DNA of 64,000 nucleotides, taken from Malacoraja senta. Lineage: Eukaryota. The notes beneath the pieces are model-generated. The model was not told the DNA's origin, searched no databases, and worked only from the letters and a program-made list of their open reading frames with translations. Numbering within the stretch: the first letter of the stretch is position 1; each line of letters starts with the position of its first letter. The stretch is taken from assembly GCA_038087875.1 (NCBI GenBank), contig CM075988.1:7876001-7940000 (forward strand). The letters are read 5' to 3'. The position numbers and the translations under genes were made by a program. Shown here piece after piece: positions 4,823 through 56,919 of this stretch.

Positions 4823-4876
4823 GGTGTGGGAGATTGCAACCTTCACGTGGTCCGCCCTGTTTCGACGAATGCAATC
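4823..4876 (+). ncRNA. Minimal HDV-like (CPEB3-type) self-cleaving ribozyme
   Basis: P1 GGTGTGG/CCGCCCT with G1-U wobble and one mismatch. P2 GATTGCA/TGCAATC perfect. P3 ACC/GGT. L3 TTCACGT. J1/4 GT. P4 reduced to about TTCG. J4/2 CGAA with the catalytic C at 4866. Confidence 0.85.
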
Positions 4877-4960
4877 AACCTGACGTGCACAATCAAATAA
4901 GATCAAATAGAACAAGTTGTCCTACAACTTTAGGCTGTGCAAGCCATACGCAAGAAGAAG
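4823..4960 (+). mobile_element. About 140-bp non-autonomous retroposon headed by an HDV-like ribozyme, with a CATACGC(AAG)n tail (Ingi/Vingi-like)
   Basis: Starts at ribozyme G1 and ends in CCATACGCAAGAAGAAG. Flanks share GTGTT (4818-4822 and 4967-4971), a possibly eroded TSD. Confidence 0.75.
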
Positions 4961-10023: not shown

Positions 10024-11204
10024 AGTCAAGTCAAGTCAAGTCAAGTCAAGTGAGTTTATTGTCATGTGTCCCTGGTAGGACAATGAAATTCTTGCTTTGC
10101 TTGAGCACAACAGAACATAGTAGGCATTTACTACAAGGCATTCTATAAATATATACACAATGGTCAATATACTGATAAAGTGCAAATAACAGTATTGGCT
10201 AGTAAAGTTCAGTGTTATGTCCGAGCCAGGTTTAATAGCCTGATGGCTGTGGGGAAGTAGCTATTCCTGAACCTGGTCGTTGCAGTCTTCAGGCTCCTGT
10301 ACCTTCTACCTGAAGGTAGTAGGGAGATGAGTGTGTGGCCAGGATGGTGTGGGTCCTTGATGATGCTGCCAGCCTTTTTGAGGCAGCGACTGTGGTAGAT
10401 CCCCTCGATGGAAGGGAGGTCAGAGCCGATGATGGACTGGGCAGTGTTTACTACTTTTTGTAGTCTTTTCCTCTCCAGGGCACTCAAGTTGCCGAACCAA
10501 GCCACGATGCAACCGGTCAGCATGCTCTCTACTGTGCACCTGTAGAAGTTAGAGAGAGTCCTCCTTGACAAACCGACTCTCCGTAATCTTCTCAGGAAGT
10601 AGAGGCGCTGATGTGCTTTCTTAATAATGGCATCATTGTTCTCGGACCAGGAAAGATCTTCAGAGATGTGCACGCCCAGGAATTTGAAGCTCTTGACCCT
10701 TTCAACCATCGACCCGTTGATATAAACGGGACTGTGGGTCCCCATCCTACTCCTTCCAAAGTCCACAATCAGTTCCTTGGTTTTGCTGGTGTTGAGGGCC
10801 AGGTTGTTGTGCTGGCACCATATGGACAGTTGCTCGATCTCTCTTCTATACTCTGACTCATCCCCATCAGTGATACGTCCCACAACAGTGGTGTCATCAG
10901 CGAACTTGATGATGGAGTTCGCACTATGTCCGGCTACGCAGTCATGAGTATAGAGTGAGTACAGCAGGGGGCTGAGCACGCAGCCTTGAGGTGCTCCCGT
11001 GCTAATTGTTATCGAGTCTGAAACATTTCCACCAATACGAACAGACTGTGGTCTGAGAGTGAGGAAGTCGAGGATCCAACTGCAGAGGGATGCGCAGAGA
11101 CCCAGTTCTGCGAGTTTGGTAACCAGCTTGGAGGGGATGATTGTGTTAAATGCCGAGCTGTAATCGATGAATAACAGCCTGACATATGAGTTTTTGTTGT
11201 CCAA
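10024..11204 (-). mobile_element. 5'-truncated Rex1/Babar-type LINE with open RT C-terminal half
   Basis: About 330 uninterrupted codons from LDNKNSYVRLLFIDYSSAFNTI through GAPQGCVLSPLLYSLYTHDC and KFADD to the stop at 10215. (CTTGA)n tail at 10024-10050. GGGTA on both flanks. Confidence 0.9.
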
Positions 11205-11209
11205 GGGTA

Positions 11210-11720
11210 GAAAGGAATTGTAGATGTTGGTTTGTACAAAAAATAGACACAAAGTGTTGGAGTAATTCAGTGGGTCAGGCAGCATCTCTGGAGAAAAGGG
11301 ATGGATGACATTTCGGGTGGGAACTCTACAGCCCAGAAACAGGCCATTTGGCCAATAATGTCCATGGTGAACATAATGCAAAGTTAAACTAATCTCCTCT
11401 GCCTGCACATGATCCATATCCCTCCATTCCCTAACATTCCCAAAAACCTTTAGGCAGAAGAGGCAGAAATCATTCATGGTAAAAGTTCTGTATAAACAAA
11501 GCACTGCAGATACTGGTTTACAACAAAAAGGGCTCAAAGTGCAGGAGTAACTCAGCAAGTCGAGCATCATCCCTGGAGAACATGGACAGGTGACATTCTG
11601 GGTCGGTTCCCTTCCGAGACTCCAATCTAAAGAAGGATCCCGGACCGAAATGTCACCCATCCATGTTCTCCAGGGATGCTGCCTGACCAGCTGAGTTATT
11701 CTAACACTTTGTGTCTTTTT
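11210..11720. repeat. Penelope-derived inverted repeats plus a CR1 3' fragment
   Basis: Arms as at 8505. Hammerhead-like CTAAAGAAGGATCCCGGACCGAAATGTC at about 11627-11654. Confidence 0.6.
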
Positions 11721-14947: not shown

Positions 14948-15261
14948 TGATAACTCAATGGGCCAGGTAGCATCTCTGGAGAAAACAAATAGGTGATGTT
15001 TCGGGTTGGAACCCATCTTCAGACTGAAAGTTGGGAGGAGTGGGGTGGAGTGGGGACTGGAGGTAACAAAAGGCCAGACCAGCACAGGGCTGGCAATAAA
15101 TATTCAAGGAAGGGTGAAGCCCATAATGGTCCATTGTTGGCTGGGGAAGAGGTGATTACGAAGGGAAACATGGATGTGAACAGTGGAACTGGTAGGACGA
15201 CTAGGTTCTAGGTTGGGGGGGGGGGGGGGTGAAGAGGGCCTGCAGGGGCTACTTGAAATGA

Positions 15262-18200
15262 CCCACAAATATTGAATGAAAGATCATGTCAGGAATATCT
15301 TATTAAACAGATGCAAACATTCTTCGAGGCAAATGACAACCCTGACACATCTGTCTCTCTTATTTGGGAGACATTTAAAGCGTTTGTCCGAGGCGCATTA
15401 ATTTCTGCCCAAGTATTTTATAACAAAGAGAACCGGATTAAACAACAAACACTGGAAAGGGAAATAAAGCAACTAGATATAGAAAATGCGAGAATGCCAT
15501 CTAAGTTAAAACATAACAAAATTGCTGTACTGAAATATAAACTAAACAAAATGTATTCAGAACAAGTAATAAAACTTTATCAACATACTAAACAATTACA
15601 TTTTGAGTTTGGAGACAAACCACAAAAACTATTAGCACGTCAGCTACAAAAAATGGAGGGGGAGAAAATAATTCATAAAATTAGAGCAGATACAGGAGAA
15701 TTATTAAAATTACCCAAGGATATAAACGAGAGATTTCTCCAATACTATCATAATCTTTACTCAACTAAAACTGTAGTACAACCAGAAGGAATAGCAGATT
15801 TTTTACAAAAATGTAATTTAAAAGGTTTAGATTCAAAAGATAGAGGATTATTAGAAGCGGAGATTACGATAAAAGATATTGAAGAGTCTATTGGATCTTT
15901 AAAAAATGGTAAAGCAGTAGGACCAGATGGTTTAGGCTCGGAATTCTATAAAAAAAATTATGATTTGCTTTCTCCACGTTTACAAAAGCTGTATGAACAT
16001 ATTTATACTCAACAGAAACTTCCAGATACCTTAAATGAATCTATAATAACACTTATTCCTAAAGCTGATAAGGATCCGGAAGATCCAGGATCATATAGAG
16101 CAATTGCACTTTTAAATACAGATCAGAAAATACTAACAAAAATGTTAGCGCACAGATTAAGTACAGTGATGAATAAACTAATACACCCTGACCAAACAGG
16201 TTTTATTCAGAAGCGGTATTCATATTACAATCTAAGAAGATTATTTAATATAATATATTCAAAGAGAAATATTAATGAAGATTTAGCAATAATCTCACTC
16301 GATGCTGAAAAAGCTTTTGATCAGGTGGAATGGCCCTATTTATTTTCGGTGATGGAAAAATTGCAGCTGGGCGAGAAATTTTGTGCATGGATAAAACTGT
16401 TATATACAAACCCTACGGCTAGAATATTAACAAACCAACGGTTATCATCTAAATTTAACCTATCTAGAGGGTGTAGACAAGGATGCCCGTTGTCTCCATT
16501 ATTATTTGCGCATGTTATAGAGCCACTCGCAGAAAGAGTCAGGACCCATCCGGAAATATATGGGTATAACACAAAGGACACAGTGAATAAAATTTCTTTA
16601 TACGCAGATGATGTATTAATTTACATTACAAAACCAGAAATTAGTATTCCAAATTTATTAAAGCTAATAACCCAATTTGGTTCACTCTCAGGATACAGAA
16701 TAAATTGGAATAAAAGTGAAATTATGCCAATAAGGGAACATAATAAACATATAATACAACAATTTCCATTTAAAATAGTAAATGAAAAATTTAAATACCT
16801 AGGCATTTATGTTACTAAGATATATACATCATTATTTAAAGCAAACTTTCCCCCATTACTGAATAAACTACATAAGAATATTCAGTATTGGAAAACACTT
16901 CCTATTTCAATGGTTGGCAAAATTAATGCCATAAAAATGATTTTCTTACCGCAAATATTATACCTTTTTCAAACAATTCCGATATATTTGTCAAAAACAT
17001 TTTTAAAAAGTTAGATTCCATTGTCAGTGACTTTATCTGGGATTATAAGAATCATAGGATAAGCAAAAAACATCTGTGCAAATCAAAAATAAATGGAGGT
17101 TTGGTTTTACCAAACGTTTTGTTTTATTTTTGGGCAGTTAACATTAAAAATATGAATTTTTGGTTGGAAGAAATAGATCAACAACCAGATTGGTTAAAAA
17201 TGGAAAAGGAAGATTGCTCACCTTTTGAAATCGGCTCGATACTATTTGCTACTTCTAAATTAAATTAAAAAAATTATAGGGAAAATCCTATAATATATAG
17301 TACTATGCGAATTTGGAAACAATTAAAAAAGACATTAAAACTAGATAATTTATCACTTTTTCTTCCAATTGCGAATAACCCTTTGTTTAAGCCCTCATGG
17401 TTGGACAAAGGTTTCACACAATGGAAAAACTATGGAATTAAAAAGATGGGACACCTTTATAAGGAAGGCACTTTTCTTTCATTTCAGGAGTTGCAACAGA
17501 TTTATGGACTTCAAGTAAATGATTTTTTCAGATATCTCCAACTTAGAGATTACGTAAAAGCAAATACTCGAAATTTTATAATTAGAAATTCAGAAATTTT
17601 TGACGACTGTTGGAATAAACATCCTAATACAGAAAAACTAATATCTTATATATATAATATTTTATTAGACAGCGATATCCCATTGACGGACTTACACAGA
17701 CAAACTTGGGAAAAAGAACTAAATCAAATAATAACGAAAGATACTTGGGAAGAAAGTTTACAACACATACATCAATGTTCATTAAATGCCAGACATTCTC
17801 TAATACAATTCAAAGTAATACATAGGTTACATTATTCTAAAACAAAATTAAATAAAATCTTCCCACATATCTCACCAATATGTGATAAATGTCAACATTT
17901 AGAAGCTAACTTATCTCATATGTTTGCAAATTGCATAAAAATTAAAAATTTCTGGGTAAATATTTTCACAATAATATCTAAAGTGACTAGCATTCAATTG
18001 GACCCGGATCCAAAATTGATAATACTTGGAACATTAGAACTAAATCAAACATTTACAACAACTCAAAGAAACTTTATTGATTATAGTATAATAACTGGGA
18101 AAAAAATAATTCTAAAATTTTGGAAAGGCCCTATAACCCCCACAATTAAAATGTGGATTATAGAAATGACGGAGACCTTACACTTGGAAAGAATTAGACT

Positions 18201-18712
18201 TGTCCTGTTGGACAAACAGGAACTATTCGTCGGAACATGGTCTCCCTTTATTGACTATTTAAAGGGTCAGAATGGTTCAGCACAGGAACCTGACTAACAC
18301 CCGTGCCAAGGAATAGATGAAAGGTTATACTCTGAAATGTACGAATATATCTCGAATGAAGTTTTTTATCGTAGTAAATTATTCCATTCTTCTTTATTAT
18401 CTTTTTTTTTTTTTTTTTGTTTTTTTGTTTTGTTTTGTTTTTTTTGTTTTTGTTTTTTGTTTTGTTTTAGGTTGGTTTTTTTGGGGGGTTTTTTCTTGTT
18501 TCTTCTCTTTTTTCTCTTTCTTTCTTTCTTTATTTCATCTATATCTTTTTAGTTCTATTTAGTTTTAAAAAAAAGAAAAAAGTATTGGAGACATTGTAAT
18601 AATAATGGACGATATTTGTAATTTAAAAATGTAAGACTGGTATCGATTTTAATATGATATGTATCTACCTCCAATAAAAAATATCTTAAAAAAAAAATTT
18701 TTTTTTTAAAAA
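15262..18712 (+). mobile_element. 5'-truncated L1/Tx1-like LINE (ORF2 RT and C-terminal Zn region, T-rich 3' UTR)
   Basis: ORF2 motifs GKAVGPDG, SYRAIALLNTDQK, LDAEKAFD, RQGCPLSP, YADD and CDKC...H...C. AATAAA at 18673. TSD GAAATGA at 15255-15261 and 18713-18719. Confidence 0.92.
15272..18297 (+). pseudogene. L1-like ORF2 (reverse transcriptase), frameshifted near 17005 with a further stop near 17266
   Basis: The 580-aa and 330-aa ORFs are consecutive parts of one ORF2. The endonuclease domain was lost by 5' truncation. Confidence 0.88.
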
Positions 18713-18747: not shown

Positions 18748-20677
18748 TGATTGATTATACCTTTAATAATCCTTTGCAGGAAATTACAATGCCACGACAG
18801 CTTCAAGACAGACATAACACCACAAATAGCTTCCATACTTAACAAGTTAAAATACAAGTTAAAATACAAGTTAAAATACAATTAATTAAAAAAAGTGGAG
18901 TTATTTATGCGCATTATATATATAACCTTATAGCAGCTGGTAAACAGGACTTCCTACGCCTCTCAGTTTTGCACATTGGTGCAATCAGTCTCTGACTGAA
19001 GATGCTGCTCTTGATCACCTTCAGGGCATGGAGTGGGTGAGTGGGGTTGGTCATTATAGAACCCAGTTTTTTCAGAGTTCTGGCCTCTGCCACCTGCTGG
19101 ACCGTTCGTTGCTCAGCCCCGACCACTGAGCCGGCCTTCCTGATCAGTTTGTCCAGTCTGTTTTTGTCCGCTATGCGAGCGCCATCTCCCCAACAGGCCA
19201 CCGCAAAAAACAGAGCACTGGCCACCACTGAATGGTAGACACTGCACAGTAGGGGTTGGCAGATGTTAAATGCCCTCAGCCTCCTTAAAAAATACAGTCG
19301 GCTTTGTCCCTTCCTGTACACCGCCTCCATATGACACTTCCAGTCCAGCTCACTGTCAAGCTGCACACCAAGGTACCTGTGGTTAGCGACCACCTCCACC
19401 TCAGTGCCCTTAATGGTGATTGGTGTTGCTTGAGTCCTCCTCCTCCCCCTCCTGAAGTCCACAACAATCTCCTTGGTTTTTGTGGTGTTAAGATGGAGGT
19501 TATTGAGTGCACTCCACTCCACAAAGTTACTTATTATGTCTCTATACTCCTCCTCATTGCCCCCTTTAATGAGGCCGACAACAGCTGTGTCATCCGAAAA
19601 TTTCTGCAAAAAGCAGCTGTTTAGAGATTAGAGATTAGAGATTAGAGATTCCTTTATTTGTCATTCAGACCTTTCGGTCTGAACGAAATTTCGTTGCCTG
19701 CAGTCATACATATAATAATAAATGACAAAACACACAATAAACACAAATTAACATCCACCACAGTGAGTTCACCAGGCACCTCCTCACTGTGATGGAGGCA
19801 AAAGTCTTAAAGTCTCTGTCTCTTCCCGCTTTGTTCTCCCTCTGCGCTGAGGCGATCCAGGCTTCTGATGCTGTGGCCCCGCCGGGCGACGGTAAGCCAG
19901 TCCCGCGGCCGAATCCGTGCTCCGTGACGGGCCGGCTCAAACTCCGCGGCCCGGGGTGGTCGAAGCTGCCGAAGCTGCCGCCCTCCAGTCCAGCGGACGC
20001 AGCTGTAGTTGTGGGAGCCCCAGAAAAACAGGTCACCAACCTGTGACCTGCGCGCTCCCGACGATGTCGTCCACTGGGCCCGCGGCCGAGCCTCCGGACT
20101 CAGGTCGCCACCAGTGTCCTCGGTCGCCACCGCCGGAACGCCACCGCAGCCCCGAATTTGGCCAGCCCCGCGCTGGTAAGTCCTGGCTCTGCCTCCGGAG
20201 CATCGTGGTCGGTCGGTCGCTCGCAGTTGGAGTTGGAGGCCGGCAGCTCGCAGTTGGATTTGGAGGCCGGCAGCTCCGCCATTTTGGCCTCAGCGCAGAC
20301 GGAGGCAGAGAAGGGGGATACGACAAGAAAAAGTCGCATTCCCCCGAAGGAAGAGACAAAAGTCATGTTTCACCCCCCCACCCCACAACCCCACACATAC
20401 ACAACCCAATAAACTAAAATTTAACTAAAACAGGACAAAAGAAAACAACAAAAAAAGTAAAAACAGACGGACTGCAGGCAAGCCGCTGCTGTATGACAGC
20501 GCCGCCACTTCCGGAAGTTGGTGTTATATCGGAGATCCGCTGTGTAGATGGTAAACAGGAATGGAGCCAGCACAGTTCCTTGTGGAGCCCCTGTGCTGCT
20601 CAAGATGGTGCTTGAGACATTGTTGTTCTGTAGGCGCACGTACTGTGGTCTGAGGGAAAGGTAATCCAAACACCACA
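18748..20677 (-). mobile_element. Rex1/Babar-type LINE fragment interrupted by a non-autonomous element
   Basis: WCLDYLSLRPQYVRL...GAPQGTVLAPFLFTIYTADLRYNTN joins SCFLQKFSDDTAVVG...AIRLYI across the insertion. (AATC)n tail at about 18748-18757. Confidence 0.88.
19622..20516 (-). mobile_element. About 0.9-kb GC/CpG-rich non-autonomous retroposon with a Rex1-like 3' stem-loop and (AATCTCT)n tail
   Basis: Begins TTCCGGAAGTGGCGGCG and ends TTCAGACCGAAAGGTCTGAATGACAAATAAAGG(AATCTCT)4. Cleanly splits the Rex RT frame, with a GTT duplication. Confidence 0.75.
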
Positions 20678-26009: not shown

Positions 26010-27750
26010 ATGGGCAATGAAAACGGAAAGCCCACCAGGGAGGGGAAGGGCGGTAAGCCCGACCCCAGCATTCTGCCTGATAGTCCGTTGGGGCGAATGC
26101 TGAGCCTCTGGGGGCAGAGAAATACCCAGGGAATTGGAGGACAAAAATGATTGAGCCTCTGGAGGCAGAGAAATACCCAGGGAATTGGAAGACAAAAATG
26201 ATTTGATTCTGTTATATTGAGTTTTAATACATGTAAAAGATGTTGCATTTATTGAAGTAAGAATGGAACGAATGTGATTTGTGTGCAAAAACCGGTTTGG
26301 AATGAAAGAGGAAGTTTATATATGTGATAATTATTTTGTTTATTGTATTTGTAGACCACATTGTAAGAGTAAGTAAGTAAGTTTTATTAAAATCAAAAAT
26401 GTTCACTGTAGGTAGGTGTATGTTCCTTTAAATAAATCAGGTCATGGTGAAAGGCGCCGAACAGCTGTAAGATAACGGTTAATGTTTGTATCCTCGTAAG
26501 AAGGGGAAGTTGTAAAACCAGCTTTTGGTTATTCTGATGTTCTTTTAGATTTCTAGTCAGTAAAGATAATTTGGAAAATTGTTACTAGTGCTAGGAATTG
26601 GACATTTAAAATAGTGGTGAATATGGATTGAAATAATTGGAAATAAGTTAATTGGTAAACATTCAAGTTTAGAAAGAAAGGAGAGAGAGGCAGTTAGAAG
26701 ATAACAGAAGTAGAAAAACGACAGGCGTGAAAGTAATAAAGCAGGAGGAGTCAGTGGAAGATTTTTGCAAGGAGGCTAGAATATTTGAGAAGCAAGAAAT
26801 TGAGTTTAGAATTAGAAAGAAGGCATACCAGAAAGGATTAAAGTTGGAAGCATTGGGATAAAGTGATGAGACTGCTTTAAAGAGAAAAGAGAAGGACAGA
26901 CACGGATTATCCCTTGGGGCACCCATAAACTGAAAGGGCTAAAAAATACCTCACCCTATATCCCTGATAGGGGAGGAAATTGATTAGGGCTTTGGAGGAG
27001 GAGAACGTGGGACTATTATTGATCATGGAAGATTTGAAGGCACTGTTGGTAAAAGTGATAGGAACCACTAAAGTGACAGAACTGAAGATGGATGGTATAA
27101 ACTGATACGAACAATGTAACAAGCAATGGCATACTGTTTGACACAGTCAGGCAGAGGGTATGGCAGACCCTCAGACAATGTTACCCACTTAAGAGGAACC
27201 CCAAGGAACAAGGGGAGATACAGAAGGAAAGGCAAATAGCCTATCTGGAAAACCAGCTGAAAAGGTGGAGAGTTGATTGATGAACATTATATTATGAACA
27301 GGCAGAGGGCATGGCAGGCCCTCAGACAATGTAATCCAGCAGCCTATCTGGAAAACCAGCTGAAAAGGTGGAGAGTTGATTGATGAACATTATATTATGA
27401 ACTACTGTGGTGGATGTCATTCTTCTTAAAGTCAAGCAGATTCAGCGAACAGTTGGTCTCTGTGGTCGAGAAATATCGCAAAGATAGGAAAAAGACTTGC
27501 AAACCAGCAGGAGGAGTTGTTGTCAATAAACAATGGACCTAAGTGAGTCCTATGACGGAACCAAGCAGGGCCAGAGAATTACATGCCAATAATGAATGTC
27601 TTTGGGGTACGTTTCCTCAAAAAGTCCTATCAGGAGTGAAATTAATCTGGATATAAGCCCTAACAGGACTGGGGTCCCCAAGAGAGAAAGGGATTTAAAG
27701 GAGGATTTGTTGATATTGTTCCATAAGTAACAAGCGATGTAAGAGAGAGA
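26010..27750 (+). pseudogene. ERV gag remnants
   Basis: MGNENGKP...ILPDSPLGRMLSLWG is a myristoylation-type, class I matrix-like start. A degraded IPWG...IRALEEENVGLLL..DLKALL segment follows at about 26900-27090. Many stops. Confidence 0.65.
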
Positions 27751-29272: not shown

Positions 29273-29289
29273 GGAACGATAGAAGGGGT

Positions 29290-29666
29290 CCCAACAAATA
29301 CAAGGGAATGATGTATTCCTAAGGAACTATTTACTGGCAGTATCTCGTTCTATTACAGAATTAAGAACCAAGGGGCTGCTGGCACAGAGTCCCCATCTCG
29401 ACTTTCCAATCCATTCTGTGAAAGCGGGGGACTGGGATCTTGTAACATCATGGAAGGAAGAAAAGCTGCAACCTAAGTGGACTGGACCCTACCTGGTGTT
29501 ACTAATCACCGAGACAGCAGTACGAACAAAAGAAAAAGGGTGGACACACGCAAGCCGATTTAAGGGTCCTGTGGAGGCCCCACCAAACAATATCAGCCCG
29601 TGGACTGTGCGCAAAGGAGAGGAACCATTGACTTTAATATTTAACAAGAACCCGCGGGAAAAATGA
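29290..29666 (+). pseudogene. Class I retroviral integrase C-terminus (GPY/F region), frame open
   Basis: FLRNYLLAVSRSITELRTKGLLAQSPHLDFPIHSVKAGDWDLVTSWKEEKLQPKWTGPYLVLLITETAVRTKEKGWTHASRFK. Confidence 0.85.
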
Positions 29667-30811
29667 AGATTTCGTGTTGGTGGGTCGTGTGTTGGGTGGT
29701 TACCCAACTATGTAAGCATACAGAGTGTTCAAATGCAGGAAAGTGGAAGGATGTGCAGATAGAACAGGGAGAATGAGCCTAAGGATTTGAAGATAATGAT
29801 AGTAGCAGGAGAAACAGAATTAAGGCAATTATATGAGATGGGAATACCTACAGGAGGGAAGGGAGCCAACACCTGGCTTGCCTGGATGATGTACACGGCC
29901 AGGAGTATGCAACACACCAATTGCTACGCCTGCGCCGGAGCTAAGCCTCAGCTGGTTCCAGAACCATTTCCCTTGAATTGGGATAGGACACCTGGGGCTA
30001 TGTCATGTATACTACAGCTATTCACGAATCCCATCCTACCAAAGGATGCGACCTGCCAGAGTTATCATTACCTATTCCCGGCTAGCAACAACAATACAAA
30101 GGGCCGAAGGACAGACACTTCAACACACACATATATATAGATGCGATAGGGGTGCCAAGAGGGGTACCCGATGAATTCAAAGCCAGAAACCAGATAGCTG
30201 CGGGCTTTGAGTCCATACTCTTCTGGTGGTCCACACTTAATACAAATGTGGACTGGATCAACTACCTATACTACAATCAACAACGCTTTATAAATTACAC
30301 TCGAGATGCGGTTGAAGGATTAGCGGAACAACTGACAGATACCAGCCTAATGGCCTGGCAAAATCGCATGGCCTTAGACATGCTACTGGCTGAGAAGGGA
30401 GGGGTGTGTGTAATGTTTGGGGAACAATGTTGCACCTTCATCCCCAACAACACTGCTCCTGATGGGTCAGTATCGAGAGCCCTAGCAGGTCTCACCTCCC
30501 TGTCTATCGAATTGGCCGAGAACTCCGGAGTAGACACCTCCTGGACCGGGTTTCTAGACTCCTGGTTTGGGAAATGGAAGCACATCTTTACCTCAGCCCT
30601 AACATCAGTGGTAGTTATGATGGGGTTGCTGTGCATATTTGGATGTTGTATCATTCCCTGCGTACGGGGGTTGTCTCAGCGATTGATAGAGACAGCCCTG
30701 ACCAAGAATGACGCCGCCATGATGGCCTTTAAAACACAGTATGACCAGCGAGAGGAAGATAAAGAGGCGAAGATTCTGCTGCTAGCATTAGAGAAGGGGC
30801 AGATAGTCTAA
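29663..30811 (+). pseudogene. env: Gamma-type env: signal peptide, partial SU (CYAC) and intact TM; internally deleted and frameshifted
   Basis: MKISCWWVVCWVV signal peptide and SU CxxC motif CYAC. TM reads YIDAIGVPRGVPDEFKARNQIAAGFES..., with ISD WQNRMALDMLLAEKGGVC, CX6CC (CVMFGEQCC), a hydrophobic anchor and tail. No furin RxKR site seen. Confidence 0.9.
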
Positions 30812-30847
30812 ATCAAAGATTGCAGTAGCAAAAGTAAAAGTGTGGAT

Positions 30848-31362
30848 TGTGAGAAAGGGGTTAATAGGTATAAGTTGATTTAGACAAGAACCCTTTGTAT
30901 AGTAGGGAGTATAGTAGGGAGGATAGGGGGAGTAAAGGACAAGTACAAATGGTGACTTTTCAAGGATGAGAACAGAGAAGATAAGGAGACCATCCATTCT
31001 GGAATTAGGGTAAGGGTCATGAGAAACACTCTGTGCGCTTGCGTAATGAGATAAATGAATATTGCAAACACACCCATCATGACAAGATGTCTCATTTAAA
31101 TGTACATGCGATGTATGATGTGGGAGGCACCAGGGGCGGTACCTGTAGAATGTGCACCTCAGTGCTCTGATTTGACAAGAGCCCGAAGGGGAGGAATAAA
31201 TGTAACAAATGTAAAATTATGTGAATAAGAGAGAGATGAATTCCATCTCTCGGTGTGTCTTGACAGGGGAGACACCCAACTCTGCAGACTTGCTAATAAA
31301 TAAACTTGTTTCTCTACATTCTCTACGCATCGTGAGTGTTCTTTCACAACTTGCGCCTGACA
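30848..31362 (+). repeat. ERV 3' LTR
   Basis: Near-identical to 25085-25599. Preceded by the purine-rich AAAAGTAAAAGTGTGGAT. Confidence 0.95.
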
Positions 31363-31367
31363 GGCGA

Positions 31368-34108
31368 GAAGGTTGACATTTACGGACAAGCAGCGGTACA
31401 GGTACAGCTCGAACCTCACAGGAAGCCAGAAACGCTGACCCTAGTGGTAGTAAAGAAAGGTGCATGCCTAATGGGAAAAGACTCGTTGAGGAAGTACCCT
31501 GGATTGCTGTCAAATCTAGCCAGCTAGAACACACTAGACCCAAGCCTAAGTACATCGAGTAGTATACAGTTTGCAAGAGGCCATGAGCTCAGTACTCAAC
31601 AAGCACGCCAAGCTGTTTGATAACAGCACCCATGAAGGGATACCAAGCCAAAGGGTATCCACAAGACGAAAACAGTGGAGCAAAGTTTTACAAAGCAGCT
31701 CCTGTTTCATATGCTGCTAGAAAGCTGATTGATGCCGCATTGGATGACGTGCTGCAGGATGGCATTATCAAGCCGGTGAAGACAGCAGATTTCACATGCC
31801 CGATCATAGCTGTTACAAAACCAAATGGGAGCATGAGTCTGTGGCAATTACAAGCTCACAGCAAATAAGGTGCTGAAAGTGGAACAGTATCCACTTCCCA
31901 CTTTGGAGGATCTCCTGCAGGAAATCTCCAGAGGAGAAAAGTTCTCTAAATTAGTCCTCTCACATGCCAATTATCAGATAGAGTTAGGCCATGAAGCTCG
32001 GAAGTTCACCACAATAAATACGCACAAGAGTCTCTTCGAGTATACCAGGTTACCCTTTGGGATATCCAGCGCAACAGCCACGTTCCAGAGAACAATGGAG
32101 AGCCTACTAGCGGATATTCCCATGTGCAAGCTGTATATCTGGATGATATCATCATCAGCGGGAAGACTGACGAAGCGGTCCTGTCAAGACTAGAAACCAG
32201 TGGGTTACGTCTGAAGAAGGAGAAGTGTGCACTGATGCAAGAGTCAGTCGACTATCTCGGATATTGACTGAACAAGATTGGTCTTCGTCCTCTTCCAGAC
32301 AAAGTTGATGCGGTGCGGGAAGCAAAGCGGCCTGTGAATCAAAGCCAACTCCAGGCATACCTCGGCTTACTTGGGTATTACAGGATGTTTATACCTAACC
32401 TGTCACAGGAGATTGCACCGTTGACTCTAATGCTGAAGGATGAGTACAGATCAGCAGATTCAAAGAGTGGGAGAAGCAGCGAGCCTGATCCCATGTTCAA
32501 ATGGGGAAAGGAGCAAGAGCAGGCATTCCAGAGATCCAAGCGTCTCCTGCAGAATGATAGTGTTCTGACGCATTACGATCCAGCGAAAACAATTCTGCTT
32601 CAAACTGATGCAAGCCCCTATGGCTTAGGTGCTGTGATAAGCCATGTTGAATCAGATGGACAAGAATACCCAATAGCGTTTGCCTCACGCACTCTCAAGC
32701 CCAGCGAAGTGAACTACGCACAATATGAAAAGGAGGGTTTATCCATAATCTTCAGACTGAAGAAGTTCCACAAGTAGTTACATGGGAGGTCTTTCACCAT
32801 TGTGACTGATCACAAGCCTCTGATGGGATTATTGGGAGACCACAAGCCTGCCAGCCCAATGGCCTTTGCTCGCATAGCAAGATGGCATATGATCCTGTCT
32901 GCCTACAGTTATAAGATTGTCCATCGAGAAGGCAAGAAACACCAGAATGCAGATGCGTTGTCGCACTTGTCGATCCACGAAGAGGACTCTTCATGGAATC
33001 ACCCTGAGCTCGCGGAGCTTGATGAAGCACCAGAGGCACGCATCAACATGCTCACCGATCTGGAAACATGCCCTGTTGATGCACAGGAAGTGAAGAGAGC
33101 TACCAAATCCATCCATGGGAGTTTCCTGAGAGACCGTGGAGTAGGATTCACTGTGATTATGCCAGCCTTGATGAGGAGAATTTGCTGATTGTGGTCGATG
33201 CTCACAGCAAATGGATTGAAGCCATTCGGGTGAAACACGCAAAAGCAGCGGCAACAGTGATTGCCCTGGGACCGTTGTTTGCATCTCATGGGTTACCGGG
33301 AATGCTGGTCACATATAATGGTACGCAGTTTGTGTCTGAAAAATTTGCCAGGTTCCTCAGGAGCAACAACATCTGCCACATTCAAACATCACCCAAACAC
33401 CCGCCCAGCAACGGACTAGCTGAAAGAGGTCTACAAATGGTGAAAGCAGGTGTGAAGAAAGGAAAAGGATCCAACCTGGAAATAAAGATCCAGAAGTTCT
33501 TGCTGACTTACCGAGTCACACCTCAAGGAACGACTGGAAAGTCACTCTGTGAACTGATGTTCAGACGAAAGATCCGCACTAAACTTAACAGTCTGCGACC
33601 CAATCTAAGCCAATCTGTCCGAAGGAAGCAAGCTTCAATGAAACAGGCAGCAGATCGAGATAGCAAGGAATGAGTCTTTGAGGTGAATGATCATGTCATG
33701 GTCAAGAACTTCACATCAGGTCCTACTTGGCTTTACGGAATGATAGCAGAAGTCATCAGTGAAGTCATGTACAACGTAAAGTTGAGTGAGGTAAGAGTCG
33801 TGCGTCGTCATGTAGATCAAATGAGAGCATACTTGCCTAAAGGTGATGAGCACACCGAGTTCCAGCAAAGAGAAGTGGTTCAACCAAGCGAGGAGCCAAT
33901 GATGGTTCTGCCTACTCCACCCGCATTGGATCCTGAAAGAACTTCAGAGAGTGAGTCCACAGTGATAACACAACATCACCACCAGAGCCTGATATCTCAG
34001 ATAACATGCAAAGTCCAACAGACTTTGTCTAATAGGATGTCTAATCGCATGTCTAATAGGACTAAAAGAACACCTAAAAGATTTGAGGATTTTGTTCTTT
34101 ATAAGTGA
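31368..34108 (+). pseudogene. Gypsy pol remainder (protease C-terminus, RT, RNase H, integrase, GPY-like end)
   Basis: YPLPTLEDL, FTTINTHK..FEYTRLPFGISSA, (Y)LDDII, LQTDASPYGLGAVISH, TDHKPL, LIVVDAHSKWIE, NGLAER. Multiple frameshifts; the integrase Zn-finger appears deleted near 33110. Confidence 0.9.
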
Positions 34109-34365: not shown

Positions 34366-34524
34366 TGTTATGTATGAGAATATGATTAGCATAATTGAAT
34401 GTCTTGCGCAATTGTACGCATGCCCAGAGAGACTCAAGATGGCGATAACTAAACAACAAGCACGTTAAATACTGTGGTGTGCCGAGTCTTATTTTAAGTC
34501 CGATTCCAGCGTAAATACATAACA
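34366..34524 (+). repeat. Gypsy 3' LTR
   Basis: 159-bp copy of 23111-23269, followed by TSD GAGTT. Confidence 0.95.
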
Positions 34525-34560
34525 GAGTTGGTGCATGTCACATGGCTGCTACAAATGTGA

Positions 34561-35391
34561 CAAGTACAGCTCCTGAAGGACCGTGTTGGGGAACTGGAGA
34601 AGCAAGTGGATGACCTCAGGTTTGTCCGAGAAACGGAGTCGTTCCTCGACAAGTCCTACAGTAAGATTGTTACACCTAAAGTACTGGAAGAGAGAAGGTG
34701 GGAGACAGTGAGAAAGTGAGGGAAGCATGGAATGCAAACGTCCCCGGGTGTTGTACCTCTTGTGAACAGGTTCACCCACTTAGAAGCTGTCGGGACAGAA
34801 GACGTATTGACACTGAGCGGCAGACTGGCTTGCGATGCGAATAGGGCTGTTGAGCCAAAACCAAAAAGGCCAAAGTCAGGCAACGCCATTGTAGTGGGAG
34901 ACTCCATTGTGAGAGGTACGGACAGGGGTTTCTGCGGCAACAGACGGGATTCGAGGATGGTGTGCTGCCTTCCTGGTGCCAGGATCCAGGATGTCACGGA
35001 CAGATTGCAGAAAATCCTCAAGGGCGAAGGTGAACAGCCGGAAGTGGTAGTGCATGTCGGCACAAACGATGTCGGAAAGAAGGGGATGAATATTCTGCAG
35101 CGTGACTTTAGAGAGCTCGGAAAAATGCTGAAAAGCAGGACCTCCAGGGTTGTTATCTCCAGTTTGCTTCCAGTTCCTCGTGCTGGCGAGAGCAGGAACA
35201 GGGAGATACGGGACCTGAATGTGTGGCTGAGGAACTGGTGCACGGGGCAGGGATTTAGATTCTTAGATCACCGGGATCTGTTTTGGAGTAAAAGGGAACT
35301 GTACAAAAGGGACGGATTGCATCTTAACAGGTGGGGGACCAGCATTCTGGCAGGCAGGTTTGCCACTGCTACACGGGTGGTTTTAAACTGA
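34561..35391 (+). pseudogene. CR1 ORF1: coiled coil plus SGNH/GDSL esterase
   Basis: QLLKDRVGELEKQVDDL..., VVGDSIVRG, VHVGTND, DGLHLN. One in-frame TGA at about 34717. Confidence 0.88.
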
Positions 35392-35617
35392 ATAAGGGGG
35401 GTGGGGTGTCGAATGGGATAGTTGAGGATGGAATTAAAGGGAAAGGGTTTCTTAAATGTGTGAGCGTAGAGACAGAGGGGTGTAAAATGAGGGTAGAAGC
35501 AATAGGTAGCAAGGTGAAAAGTAAAAGTGGCAGGCAGACAAATCCAGGGCAAAAATCAAAAAGGGCCACTTTTCAACATAAAAGGGTAAGAGTGTTGTAA
35601 AAACAAGCCTGAAGGCT

Positions 35618-38411
35618 TTGTGTCTCAATGCAAGGAGCATTCGTAATAAGGTGGATGAGTTGAATGTGCAGATAGCTATTAATGACTATGATATAGTTGG
35701 GATCACGGAGACATGGCTCCAGGGTAACCAAGGCTGGGAGCTGAACATCGAGGGATATTCAATATTCAGGATAGACAGAAAGGGAAAGGAGGTGGGGTTG
35801 CGTTGCTGTTTAGAGAGCAGATTAACGCAATAGAAAGGAAGGACATTAGCTTGGAGGATGTGGAATCGATATGGGTAGAGCTGCGAAACACTAAGGGGCA
35901 GAAAACACTAGTGGGAGTTGTGTACAGGCCACCTAACAGTAGTAGTGGAGTTGGGGATGGCATCAAACAGGAAATTAGAAATGCGTGCAACAAAGGTAAA
36001 ACAGTTATAATGGGTGACTTCAATCTGCATATAGATTGGGTGAATCAAATTGGCAAGGGTGCTGAGGAAGAGGATTTCTTGGAATGTATGCGGGAAAGTT
36101 TTCTAAACCAACATGTAGAGGAACCAACGAGAGAGCAGGCTATTCTGGATTGGGTATTGAGTAATGAGGAAGGGTTAGTTAGCAGTCTTGTTGTGCGTGG
36201 CCCCTTGGGCAAGTGTGACCATAATATGGTTGAGTTCTTCATTAGGATGGAGAGTGACATTGTTAATTCAGAAACAAGGGTCCTGAACTTAAAGAAACGT
36301 AACTTTGAGGGTATGAGAAGTGAATTGGCCAAGATAGACTGGCAATTGATTCATAATGGGTTGACGGTAGATATGCAATGGAAGGCATTTAAAGACTGCA
36401 TGGATGAACTACAACAATTGTTCATCCCAGTTTGGCAAAAAAATAAATCAGGGAAGGTAGTGCATCCATGGATAACAAGGGAAATCAGGGATAGTATCAA
36501 AACAAAAGATGAAGCGTACAAATTAGCGAGAAAAAGCAGCCTACCAGAGGACTGGGAGAAATTCAGAGTCCAGCAGAGGAGGACAAAGGGCTTAATTAGG
36601 AAAGGGAAAATAGATTATGAAAGAAAACTGGCAGGGAACATAAAAACTGACTGCAAAAGCTTTTATAGATATGTGAAGAGAAAAAGATTAGTTAAAACAA
36701 ATGTAAGTCCCTTGCAGTCAGAAACAGGTGAATTGATCATGGGGAACAAGGACATGGCAGACCAATTGAATAACTACTTTGGTTCTGTCTTCACTAAGGA
36801 AGACATAAATAATCTGCCGGAAATAGCAGGGGACCGGGGGTCAAATGAGATGGAGGAACTGAGTGAAATCCAGGTTAGCCGGGAAGTGGTGTTAGGTAAA
36901 TTGAATGGATTAAAGGCCGATAAATCCCCAGGGCCAGATAGGCTGCATCCCAGAGTACTTAAGGAAGTAGCCCCAGAAATAGTGGATGCATTAGTGATAA
37001 TTTTTCAAAACTCTTTAGATTCTGGAGTAGTTCCTGAGGATTGGAGGGTAGCAAACGTAACCCCACTTTTTAAAAAGGGAGGGAGAGAGAAAACGGGGAA
37101 TTACAGACCAGTTAGTCTAACGTCGGTAGTGGGGAAACTGCTAGAATCAGTTATTAAAGATGGGATAGCAGCACATTTGGAAAGTGGTGAAATCATTGGA
37201 CAAAGTCGGCATGGATTTATGAAAGGTAAATCATGTCTGACGAATCTTATAGAATTTTTCGAGGATGTAACTAGTAGAGTGGATAAGGGAAAACCAGTGG
37301 ATGTGTTATATCTGGACTTTCAGAAGGCTTTCGAAAAGGTCCCACATAAGAGTTTGTATACAAACTTAAAGCACACGGTATTGATGGTTCAGTATTGATG
37401 TGGATAGAGAACTGGCTGGCAGACAGGAAGCAAAGAGTAGGAGTATACGGGTCCTTTTCACAATGGCAGGCAGTGACTAGTGGGGTACCGCAAGACTCAG
37501 TGCTGGGACCCCAGCTATTTACGATTTATATTAATGATTTGGACGAGGGAATTGAATGCAACATCTCCAAGTTTGCGGATGACACGAAGCTGGGGGGCAG
37601 TATTAGCTGTGAGGAGGATGCTCGGAGGCGGCAAGGTGACTTGGATAGGCTGGGTGAGTGGGCAAATGCATGGCAGATGCAGTATAATGTGGATAAATGT
37701 GAGGTTATCCACTTTGGTGGCAAAAGCAGGAAAGTAGACTATTATCTGAATGGTGGCCGATTAGGAAAAGGGGAGATGCAACGAGACCTGGGTGTCATGG
37801 TACGCCAGTCATTAAAAGTAGGCATGCAGGTGCAGCAGGCAGTGAAGAAGGCGAATGGTATGTTAGCATTCATAGCAAAAGGATTTGAGTATAGGAGCAG
37901 GGAGGTTCTACTGCAGTTGTACAGGGTCTTGGTGAGACCACACCTGGAGTATTGCGTACAGTTTTGGTCTCCTAATCTGAGGAAAGACATTCTTGCCATA
38001 GAGGGAGTACAGAGAAGGTTCACCAGACTGATTCCTGGGATGTCAGGACTTTCATATGAAGAAAGACTGGATAGACTCGGTTTGTACTCGCTAGAATTTA
38101 GAAGATTGAGGGGGGATCTTATAGAAACGTACAAAATTCTTAAGGGGTTGGACAGGCTAGATGCAGGAAGATTGTTCCCGATGTTGGGGAAGTCCAGAAC
38201 AAGGGGTCACAGTTTAAGGATAAGGGGGAAATCTTTTAAGACCGAGATGAGGAAAACATTTTTCACACAGAGAGTGGTGAATCTCTGGAATTCTCTGCCA
38301 CAGAAGGTAGTTGAGGCCAGTTCATTGGCTATATTTAAGAGGGAGTTAGATGTGGCCCTTGTGGCTAAAGGGATCAGGGGGCATGGAGAGAAAGCAGGTA
38401 CAGGATACTGA
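35618..38411 (+). pseudogene. CR1 ORF2: APE endonuclease plus reverse transcriptase, two frameshifts (about 35780 and 37350)
   Basis: CLNARSI, GITETWL, VYRPP, MGDFN, CDHN, NYRPVSLTS, LDFQKAF, SGVPQ, KFADD...GEKAGTGY*. Confidence 0.92.
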
Positions 38412-39108
38412 GTTGGATGATCAGCCATGATCATATTGAATGGCGGTGCAGGCTCGAAGGGCTGAATGGCCTACTCCTGCACCTATTTTCTATGTTTCTA
38501 TGTTTCTATGTTTCTATGTCAGAAACACAGGATGAACTAATCATTTTCAATTCCCTTTGTGTTTAACCTTCATTTTAAAATATACACACACATCTTGAGA
38601 TGCCAAAGTTTTGTTAAGTAGGATGAGGACAGAAGCCCATGAGAGATATTTTGGGTGGCACAGACGTTAATAGTGCTGCTTCACGCCTCCAGAGACCCAG
38701 AATAAACTTTGACCTCAGGTGCTTTCTGTGTGGTGTTAAAGTTAGGTTTATTATTGTCATATGTACTGAGGTAAAGTGAAAAAACTTTGTTTTGCATGCA
38801 ATCCAAGTAGATATATCGTACATAGATATAATCAGTTCAAACTCAAGTACAATAGGTAGAGTAAAGGGGGAAGGTACAGAGTGCTGAATATAGTTCTCAG
38901 CATTTTAGTGAATGTATGTGGTGATTGCTCCTTCTCCCTGTGACCACATGGGTTTCCTCTGGGTGCTCTGGTTTCCAAATAGTTACTTGACCATTGCAAG
39001 TTGCCCTTAGTGGCTATAAAGGGCCCCTAGCTCCTAGAGGTCAGTGACTAATAGAGTCAAAGAGGAGTTGATGAGCCTTAGAGAGAGTAGGTAACAGAGT
39101 TACTAGAG

Positions 39109-39175
39109 GGGGCTCATGTTGTCGACCTCCCCGTGGTGAGCTCTGTCAACTGACCTCAGTCAGGTGAACGACAAC
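39109..39175 (+). ncRNA. HDV-like ribozyme with the catalytic C changed to T (predicted inactive copy)
   Basis: P1 GGGGCTC/GAGCTCT with G1-U wobble. P2 GTTGTCG/CGACAAC. P3 ACC/GGT. L3 TCCCCGT. J1/4 GT. P4 CTGAC/GTCAG. J4/2 is TGAA instead of CGAA (T39165). Confidence 0.85.
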
Positions 39176-39313
39176 AAACAGAGACAGCAGTAGCGCCGCA
39201 GCTTGGCGCCAACCCAGAGCATGCGCCCGTTTTAGGGCGGGCACCTACGGATGTCGAAATGGATGGCATCACCCTTCTGCAGACTTCTACTGCCTCAAAC
39301 GCAAGAAGAAGAA
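39109..39313 (+). mobile_element. About 205-bp non-autonomous retroposon headed by an HDV-like ribozyme, with an ACGC(AAG)n tail (Ingi/Vingi-like)
   Basis: Starts at ribozyme G1 and ends in CAAACGCAAGAAGAAGAAG. Imperfect TSD TACTAGAG (39101-39108) / TACTGGAG (39316-39323). Confidence 0.78.
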
Positions 39314-39324
39314 GCTACTGGAGA

Positions 39325-39648
39325 AGGCGGCATGGTAGAGTTGCTGCCTTACAGCGCTTGCAGCACCAGAGACCCGGGTTCGATCCCGACTATGGGTACT
39401 GTCTGTATGTAGTTTGTACATTCTCCCCGTGACCTGCGTGGGTTTTCTCCGAGATCTTCGGTTTCCTCCCACACTCCAAAGACGTACAGGTATGTTGGTT
39501 AATTGACTTGCCGTATGTGTAAAAAACAATTGTCCCTAGTGTGTGTAGGATAGTGTTAATGTTCGGGGATCGCTGGTCGGCGTGGACCCGGTGGGCCGAA
39601 GGGCCTGTTTCCACGCTGTATCTCTAAACTAAGCCTAACTAAACTAAA
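39325..39648 (+). mobile_element. HE1-like V-SINE
   Basis: tRNA-like head with B-box GGTTCGATCC, V-domain, CR1-like tail and (CTAAA)n. Confidence 0.88.

Positions 39649-55753: not shown

Positions 55754-55835
<82 letters not shown>
55745..55835. repeat. (TTTA)n/(TTA)n microsatellite within DIRS
   Basis: Directly visible simple repeat. Confidence 0.95.
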
Positions 55836-55837
<2 letters not shown>

Positions 55838-56919
55838 TTTTTTTCCCTCTGAGTCAGACAGGAGCTGACTCCAAATTCTCCCCTCCTCAGAGAGGGAGAC
55901 ATAGTGCAGCTGCCGTTGCCGTGAGCCCTCCCCCCCCCCCCCCCATGGGGACCCGTGGTGATAACTCCCTCCTTTGAAGTACATCATTGTGGAGCACCTC
56001 TCCATCAGGTGCTCCATGTGGGTTTGAATGCTCAAAGGCGTTACCCATGAAGGAGGGGATCCTCTCCATCAGGAATCCTCCTGGCCCGACTTGTTTGAGT
56101 CAACGTGGCGTCTTCCAATGCTCTGGGAGATATATCGTGGCTACCCTCCAAGCGGGTGCCTAGGTGCTACCGGCACCAGTCTGAAGCCGCTGGCTCCATC
56201 CAGCGACTCAAAAGGCGAATTTTGACCGGCCCCGCTACCGCATACCCGCGGTCTCCGTAGCGGGTTCCCGCGGTCCGTTTCCGGGATTCCCCGAGGTCAT
56301 GACCGGGATTCCCTCTGGTCAGTGACTGGGGTTGCCCGCGGCCCATGAAGGTTCCCCCGCGGCTGCCCGGACTTCGCCCCGAACTTCCGCAGGAAAAACC
56401 CTGAAAACAGGGAATCCTGCAAAAGAAAAACATAACCTTAAACTAAGTTTAAAACTTACCTTGGGGTTTAAACTTACCGCTGGCAGGAGCGGCGCCCTGC
56501 CAGACCGACGTAGCGCAATACGGTAGATGTAATGACGCGCTTGCGCCTGGACGGCCTTCTTCACGTAGTCACTCACGTGACTCCGAAGTAAAATTTCTGC
56601 AGGAGGGCTCTTGCCCATTAACTTTCTTTTTCTTTATAACCCAAAGTTCTGGAGCTTTAGTTCAGGATCTATTCACTGTTTCACTACCGTAACCTAGGAG
56701 AACAGGCGAGGTTGTGATAGTGACCCAGGATTGTATTATGGACAAGGGGGAAGGTATTAGGATGGCACTGGGCTTGAGTTCTCTTAACTATGCACCGATG
56801 CAATGGCACTGAGGCAGGAGGAGTAGCTCGGTGGTGTGATATCCCGAGAGCCATGGACCCTGGGCCGGAGAGGCTACTTGATATCACTGTGGCAGATTAT
56901 GGAGAGTAGGACGTTCTTT

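Follow-up and report, generated by a model that had tools for sequence, protein, structure and literature searches.

The element that begins at position 39109 of the DNA analysed here, a stretch of 64 kb which is called the window throughout, raises three questions: what kind of mobile sequence it represents, how its sharply defined ends came about, and whether the T in the catalytic place of its ribozyme-like head has any particular meaning. The preliminary description had regarded it as a small retroposon headed by an HDV-like ribozyme, built like a second, sequence-unrelated element at 4823, and had attributed the loss of the catalytic C to decay of a methylated CpG. The evidence presented below makes it very probable that 39109-39314 is a dead, neutrally decayed copy of a non-LTR retroposon with an HDV-like ribozyme at its head, mobilised by an RTE-like LINE with an (AAG)n tail. 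In the following, the 205-bp family of this element is referred to as family B and the 138-bp family of the element at 4823 as family A.

The fold can be traced just as it had been described, with a small correction at the 3' end, where the AAG run reaches 39314 and not 39313 (Table 1). The double pseudoknot is present in its nested order P1-P2-P3-P3'-P1'-P4-P4'-P2' with stems of 7, 7, 3 and 5 bp; two linker bases stand between the 5' strands of P1 and P2, and P4 is followed by a G and then by TGAA (J4/2) immediately 5' of the P2 3' strand. A target-site duplication of about 8 bp had also been described, and 8 nt were indeed found, but with one mismatch between the two copies. The ACGC(AAG)n end occurs twice in the window, compared with 0.26 matches expected by chance. 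The description as a retroposon headed by an HDV-like motif is supported.

Table 1. Features of the family B copy, its family A companion and the host-gene hint in the window.
Feature	Position	Strand	Remarks
Retroposed copy, family B	39109..39314	+	starts at G1 39109, ends after (AAG)4
Target-site duplication, 5' copy	39101..39108	+	TACTAGAG; 7/8 match to 3' copy
Target-site duplication, 3' copy	39316..39323	+	TACTGGAG
Putative HDV-like ribozyme head	39109..39175	+	first 67 nt of element
P1	39109-15 / 39138-44	+	GGGGCTC / GAGCTCT; 7 bp incl. G1·U
P2	39118-24 / 39169-75	+	GTTGTCG / CGACAAC; 7 bp
P3	39125-27 / 39135-37	+	ACC / GGT; 3 bp
L3	39128-34	+	TCCCCGT; 7-nt loop
C>T in P1 3' strand	39142	+	G3-C to G3·U; also in copy L002
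J1/4	39145-46	+	GT
P4	39150-54 / 39159-63	+	CTGAC / GTCAG; 5-bp stem
Catalytic place of J4/2	39165	+	T here, C in family majority
Non-coding body of family B	39176..39298	+	123 nt; two GC-rich hairpins
3' end motif	39299..39314	+	ACGC + (AAG)4
Companion copy of 138-bp family A	4823..4960	+	CGAA intact; tail ACGC(AAG)3
Putative ribozyme head, family A	4823-4876	+	minimal P4
WDR11 first propeller (PF23751)	55760-56068	-	21 bits, cut-off 26.7; E = 1.5e-4

The support that covariance models lend to the fold is graded. At the gathering threshold, the Rfam scan of the whole window returned nothing, while in an E-value scan of 401 nt the family RF02682 (HDV-F-prausnitzii) matched 39109-39175 over its full model with 26.9 bits (E = 0.0043), which is below the gathering score of 44. 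The best family B copy, with 36.7 bits, also stays below it; no copy scanned reached the gathering score of any HDV family in Rfam, RF02682 was the only HDV family matched, and the CPEB3 and genomic HDV ribozyme families gave no match at E up to 10. Across the genome RF02682 matched family B copies only. Our own fold descriptor demanded G1·U, at least 6 of 7 pairs in P1, 3 of 3 in P3, fixed spacing, C-N-R-A before P2 and at least 6 of 7 pairs in P2. In the 64 kb it was passed by the 4823 copy alone when C was required at the catalytic place, and by exactly the copies at 4823 and 39109 when C or T was accepted; first-order Markov resamples of the window yielded 0.36 descriptor matches on average, and two or more in 4 of 100. 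A model of our own (R1) scored 91.7 bits at 39109-39175 and 68.5 bits at 4823, both copies being part of its training set, and a further match at 27408-27482 (14.4 bits, E = 0.073) was weak and was taken as chance. Minimum-free-energy folding, a method blind to pseudoknots, placed the element no better than its shuffles (z = -0.17).

Family B proved to be abundant in its own genome, of which 1.94 Gb were searched. The 205-nt query led to 846 first-look candidates; 40 were scored, and every one of these was full length with 92-96% identity, 38 aligning from base 1. At least 357 near-exact copies are present. Thirty copies aligned with their flanks have the GGGGCTC start in common and end in CGC(AAG)n with variable n, and the flanking DNA is unrelated. 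By an automatic rule, a direct repeat abuts both G1 and the tail in 22 of these 30 copies; the window copy fails this rule solely through the internal mismatch in its 8-nt repeat. Mean non-CpG divergence from the family majority was 2.05% in this 30-copy sample, which is biased towards the query. The nearest relative of the window copy, L002, lies 363 kb away in different flanks and shares four subfamily marks with it, including the C>T at 39142, but has kept the catalytic C. With 205 bp, no ORF, duplications and an (AAG)n tail of the same kind as that of the candidate LINE described below, family B reads as a short, non-autonomous family without a Pol III-type head. One of its copies, L021, sits inside the same kind of repeat as the one found at 39324-39640 of the window.

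The family A element at 4823 shares the architecture in its start, HDV-like head, tail and duplications, as had been stated. Its 138-nt query returned 715 candidates, 40 of which were scored at 96-99% identity, and the copies display the same exact start, tail and duplications, the duplication abutting G1 in 20 of 30. To call the two families sequence-unrelated is fair: the only stretches that BLAST matches between them are the 13-nt tail and a core word of 7 nt. P4 of family A comprises a few bases only, and the details of P4 are called non-essential in the relevant section of one account of the HDV ribozyme (PMC4227795). In one A subfamily, to which the 4823 copy belongs, position 3 of P1 is a U-C mismatch. 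An older subfamily (L068, L071, L081, L088, L095 and L054:2678-2886) differs in its mid-body and reads CTAA instead of CGAA in J4/2, so that the base which follows the catalytic C varies naturally. Among further copies, L079:497-1523 has a single outer duplication (GGTGTCCTTG) and is interrupted immediately upstream of its ACGC tail by a nested insert, about 870 bp in length, which contains long inverted repeats, and the pairs L057/L058 and L059/L060, 24 kb and 120 kb apart, have identical flanks and are segmental duplications rather than separate insertions.

Covariation between the two families had been put forward in favour of the fold, and it withstands a formal count. Heads of 30 A and 30 B copies were aligned in register with MAFFT and the structure was written by hand, leaving 37 distinct rows. 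Of all cells, 96.6% pair, a share that drops to 32-45% once the 3' partners are shifted by 1-3 columns, and six pairs (two in P1, four in P2) are changed on both sides between A and B with pairing retained. The G1·U pair (columns 1/37) is present in 33 of the 37 distinct rows and also in the head of the LINE. These counts represent two lineages, or three with the LINE, and not 60 independent sequences.

A candidate for the autonomous partner was found elsewhere in the genome, an RTE-like LINE, about 3.17 kb long, whose one ORF encodes APE and RT. A tail pattern that excluded the letters of A and B gave 77 matches, five of which have a common new upstream sequence; one of the five, L096, is a LINE piece truncated at its 5' end and flanked by a duplication of its own; its ORF closes with ...STELQV and a stop codon, and 12 nt separate the latter from (AAG)4. 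The same pattern with one excluded letter had given 57 matches, and nearly all of the 30 inspected were mutated A or B copies, L079 included; among other (AAG)n ends in about 350 kb of genome sequence scanned none was convincing. The closest full-length relatives in the protein collection measure 976-1034 aa, comprise APE and RT (PF03372/PF14529, PF00078) and lie on contigs of 3.1-5.3 kb, and two named partial relatives of the ORF are teleost fish records. Searched with the protein query P0003, the genome gave 53 matches with 48-80% amino-acid identity, and a LINE copy of 3171 bp at C1:197208048-197211218 holds an open frame of 1033 aa without stops. A duplication of some 10-12 nt flanks this copy (ends L097 and L098); it reads ACCAGGCATCAT, or CAGGCATCAT when the last two bases of the LINE are included, and borders directly on GGAGGAG to the left and on ...GACACACGAC to the right. 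An AAG run is absent from this copy. The 5' UTR amounts to 77 nt and the 3' UTR to 12-17 nt. RTE elements are about 3.2 kb long, with a single ORF (N-terminal APE followed by RT), very short UTRs and a short-repeat tail; the candidate agrees with them in length, ORF, UTRs and tail, and is RTE-like by this build. The LINE adjoining the element in the window at 34.5-38.5 kb was considered as a partner as well and rejected, its tail being (TTCTATGT)n.

The 3' ends tie the three lineages together in kind, if not letter by letter. Genome-wide, there are 335 LINE 3' ends with an exact match to the last 17 nt, and in 88 of the first 100 the continuation is ACAG(AAG)n, giving a usual end of CACACG-ACAG-(AAG)n. 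CA-N-ACG precedes the (AAG)n tail in A, B and the LINE alike; the usual LINE end ACG-ACAG-AAG is, however, not identical to the ACG-C-AAG of A and B, and ACACGC(AAG)n, the form identical to theirs, is a minor one with only 6 exact LINE copies. As the preliminary description had proposed, A and B may share one LINE partner.

The head of the LINE offers a third version of the fold. From base 1 it reads GGAGGAG-AC-AAAGACA-GCC-TCTACGC-GGC-CTCCTCT, with the same spacing (7+2+7+3+7+3+7) as in A and B but with different letters in P1, P2 and P3. P1 is complete (7/7, with G1·U), P3 is GCC/GGC, and a perfect P2 partner, TGTCTTT, overlaps the start codon. L3 position 3 and J1/4 position 1, C-G in A and B, are read as U-A in the LINE, a joint change that would fit a P1.1 pair. 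In an Rfam scan of 361 nt of the LINE 5' region, RF02682 was again the sole match, starting from that G, with 19.3 bits (E = 0.23). A covariance model of A and B, which missed the LINE head at default filters, scored it at 21.2 bits (E about 7e-6) with filters off, the next best match having 1.7 bits. J4/2 of the LINE is ambiguous and can be taken as CCAA, which our descriptor accepts, or as CGAA with 5 extra nt. The start codon lies within the P2 3' strand (L097:100-102 and 95-101, respectively, minus strand), so that the ORF begins where the ribozyme ends.

With a 141-nt query across the 5' junction of the LINE (G1 = position 22), 202 candidates were obtained and 39 other copies were scored. 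Homology starts at query positions 19-25 in 26 of the 39, at 30 in 11 and at 13 in 2. In the 11 shortened copies the alignment begins no earlier than 8 nt into the ribozyme, with 98-99% identity; ten of them are situated on small, unplaced contigs (C6114, C5619 and C5104 among them) and one on C1729, and they may form a subfamily whose P1 5' strand is different, or be arranged in tandem.

The alternative that survives best concerns the origin of the families and leaves their present nature untouched. According to it, A and B are internally deleted derivatives, of the SIDE or bipartite kind, that go back to other subfamilies of this RTE-like LINE or to extinct ones, as opposed to independently assembled 'head plus tail' modules. 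RTE, Ingi and R2 are listed among the sources of bipartite non-autonomous LINEs with a retained LINE 5' end in the relevant part of Kojima (2018; PMC5786205), and a second LINE copy, 48% identical, is present in the genome. Against this, A and B resemble the one LINE subfamily sampled in nothing beyond 13-15 nt of tail, where BLAST matches between them and the LINE ends stop; their ends are not recognisable copies of its ends, nor were their heads copied from its head. We consider the two origins evenly balanced.

The next alternative questions the function of the head. The 5' motif could be mainly an internal promoter or a protein-binding structure, with the 5' end marking a transcription start and the fold inactive or secondary. 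Self-cleavage is a prediction from anatomy, the Rfam scores are under the gathering score, and the first 77 nt of L1Tc (Pr77) act as promoter and ribozyme according to the pertinent part of PMC3383444. RNA data do not bear on cleavage in either direction: none of the RNA runs on record contains the stretch of the element, and in the one polyA run, whose reads were placed at 88% likeness, the unique flanks had depth 0 and the element a depth of about 15 falling to 6, which derives from other copies. These reads have C at 39165 in 9 of 11 cases and C in place of the T at 39142, and no pile-up of read starts or ends at 39109 was reported from this shallow run (depth about 15). However, pairing survives the six two-sided changes that separate A from B, and further ones in the LINE, and G1·U together with C-N-R-A before P2 is kept in three lineages, constraints that are specific to a ribozyme fold. 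A head that is chiefly a promoter or binding site is therefore judged improbable, and the reading as an HDV-like ribozyme is retained in what follows.

As to the catalytic place, the preliminary description had asked for a family consensus of CGAA, and this is what the family majority reads: GGCGAAC in 30 aligned copies, and 176 CGAA against 44 TGAA among exact 19-mers around the site in the whole genome. The T at 39165 is hence a C>T change at a CpG. The same description had gone further and suggested that decay of the methylated CpG acts as a switch which turns copies off, and here only the transition itself stands. A pattern allowing transitions at the catalytic CpG and at the CpG 4 nt downstream gave 357 matches, the first 100 of which were tallied in genome order. 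In these unselected copies the catalytic dinucleotide is CG in 65, TG in 20 and CA in 15, so that the C is kept in 80, and the neighbour is CG in 74, TG in 14 and CA in 12; TG is in excess neither over CA at the catalytic CpG nor over the neighbouring site. Because the two tallies are alike, the loss of the catalytic C in the window copy is ordinary neutral CpG decay, and it carries no special meaning. Since the closest relative L002 keeps the C, the T is private or recurrent and was not inherited. C75U inhibits cleavage of the HDV ribozyme, as stated in the pertinent part of PMC4227795, and by analogy self-cleavage of the window copy should be abolished; a 39165C revertant would presumably be active unless the G3·U pair also does harm.

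Selection would be another way to account for this T, either by the host against active ribozymes in transcribed DNA or through the spread of a T-bearing subfamily. An active ribozyme on the sense strand of an intron would be expected to cut host pre-mRNA, and T occurs in 44 of the 220 copies in which the other 18 letters are exact. Yet the decay of the catalytic CpG resembles that of its neighbour, the aligned T-bearing copies have no other marks in common, and L002, the closest relative, has C. Selection for the T is accordingly regarded as distinctly improbable, and neutral decay is preferred. Finally, an ordinary Pol III SINE with a tRNA, 7SL or 5S head and coincidental ribozyme-like pairing, to which the short, abundant, duplication-flanked build with a LINE-type tail might point, is practically negligible as an explanation, as ARAGORN found 0 tRNA genes and no tRNA-like head, the Rfam scans matched no tRNA, 7SL or 5S family, and the head is an HDV-like motif from base 1.

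The element had been placed antisense in the intron of a predicted host gene. A Pfam scan covering 399 translated ORFs of the window brought up a single host-gene hint, the WDR11-like piece of Table 1, which is below threshold, and an exon on the other side of the element was not found among these translations. Directly 3' of the element lies a very abundant SINE-like repeat (39324-39640), with RNA depth of up to about 1500 per mate direction. Upstream, 34500-38530 (+) is occupied by a near-complete LINE with an ORF1 for a GDSL/SGNH esterase, an ORF2 for APE endonuclease and RT, and the (TTCTATGT)n tail; its ORF2 frame is broken near 37350-37395, and it is of CR1/L2-like build and unrelated to the (AAG)n elements. 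Retrovirus-like and LTR-element-like pieces, all broken into short frames, extend over 29283-34105 (+), with the C-terminal domain of an integrase and an ORF resembling env TM at 29.3-30.8 kb and RT, RNase H and integrase core at 31.8-33.7 kb. Further LINE RT fragments are situated at 10218-11720 (-), 15257-18294 (+) and 18917-19627 (-), two of which carry a short motif named ALKBH8_N by Pfam.

Under the preferred reading, the history of the window copy would run as follows. A source copy would have been transcribed within a longer RNA, and the HDV-like ribozyme in the first 67 nt would have cut just 5' of G1 and in this way fixed the exact 5' end, as the anatomy suggests. The RT of an (AAG)n-tailed RTE-like LINE, the candidate described above being the probable enzyme, would have started on ...ACG-C-(AAG)n and copied the RNA up to G1 by target-primed reverse transcription. 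Insertion would have left a target-site duplication some 8-12 bp long; both the duplications and the exact ends can be observed in the copies themselves. Thereafter the inserted copy would have decayed neutrally, and the C>T transition at its catalytic CpG would be part of this decay.

It is tempting to see more in these families, namely a distinct vertebrate 'ribozyme-SINE' class, comprising A and B, with own heads not derived from the partner LINE, no Pol III head, a minimal CA-N-ACG-(AAG)n end and hundreds to thousands of young copies, whose orientation and catalytic state in genes would be selected because sense intronic copies with the C would cut host pre-mRNA. We consider such a class unlikely. 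What the genome does provide are three natural variants of an HDV-like fold, two in short elements and one in a LINE, with pair changes fully compensated and hundreds of copies each, a convenient set on which the part played by ribozyme-defined 5' ends in the mobility of LINEs and SINE-like elements can be tested. The link between RTE elements and ribozymes would extend to a large animal genome, and in annotation such repeats would best be filed as LINE-dependent, ribozyme-headed elements and not as unknown SINEs.

Several known systems resemble the one described here. CPEB3 and the genomic HDV ribozymes have the double pseudoknot, G1·U and a CGAA J4/2 in common with it, and the 7-nt L3 of family A is presumably equal to that of CPEB3; CPEB3 is, however, a single-copy intronic ribozyme and not a mobile element. 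A literature search, whose reach ended short of Ruminski et al. (2011) and Repbase, returned no description of this kind of element from a vertebrate. Both RTE LINEs with an HDV-like ribozyme and non-autonomous derivatives that bear one have already been published. In the relevant parts of the literature, HDV-like ribozymes are listed at the 5' ends of RTE, LOA (baggins), R2, R4, R1 and Ingi (L1Tc) LINEs (PMC6765202; PMC5786205), baggins and RTE elements being named as carriers in a review (PMC6765202). As here, they form the first nucleotides of the element, and cleavage 5' of G1 frees it from the co-transcript; as far as these sources go, the published cases come mainly from insects, trypanosomes and other invertebrates, whereas the present one is found in a large animal-type genome.

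Among non-autonomous elements, the R2 SIDEs and R2/R1 hybrid SIDEs of Drosophila are, like A and B, short and without ORF, with a 5' HDV-like ribozyme and a LINE-type 3' end, and R2 SIDEs are moved in trans by target-primed reverse transcription (Eickbush & Eickbush, 2012; PMC3414825). In the portion of that study relevant here, SIDEs are rare, inserted in rDNA target sites and plain deletion products of R2/R1, whereas A and B are dispersed, number hundreds of copies and have about 13 nt in common with the LINE subfamily sampled. NARTc/SIDER and L1Tc of trypanosomatids likewise combine a LINE with a dispersed non-autonomous partner that carries its kind of 5' HDV-like ribozyme; there, according to the corresponding passages, NARTc shares its first 77 nt, also a promoter, with L1Tc (PMC3383444; PMC4035085), while the heads described here differ from that of the LINE and are not known to act as promoters. 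The RTE clade has bipartite non-autonomous LINEs (Kojima, 2018; PMC5786205), which are short like A and B and keep the 5' and 3' ends of the LINE, the 5' ribozyme being suggested in the same source as the reason for 5' end retention. The heads of A and B, in contrast, gave no BLAST match to the 5' end of the sampled LINE.
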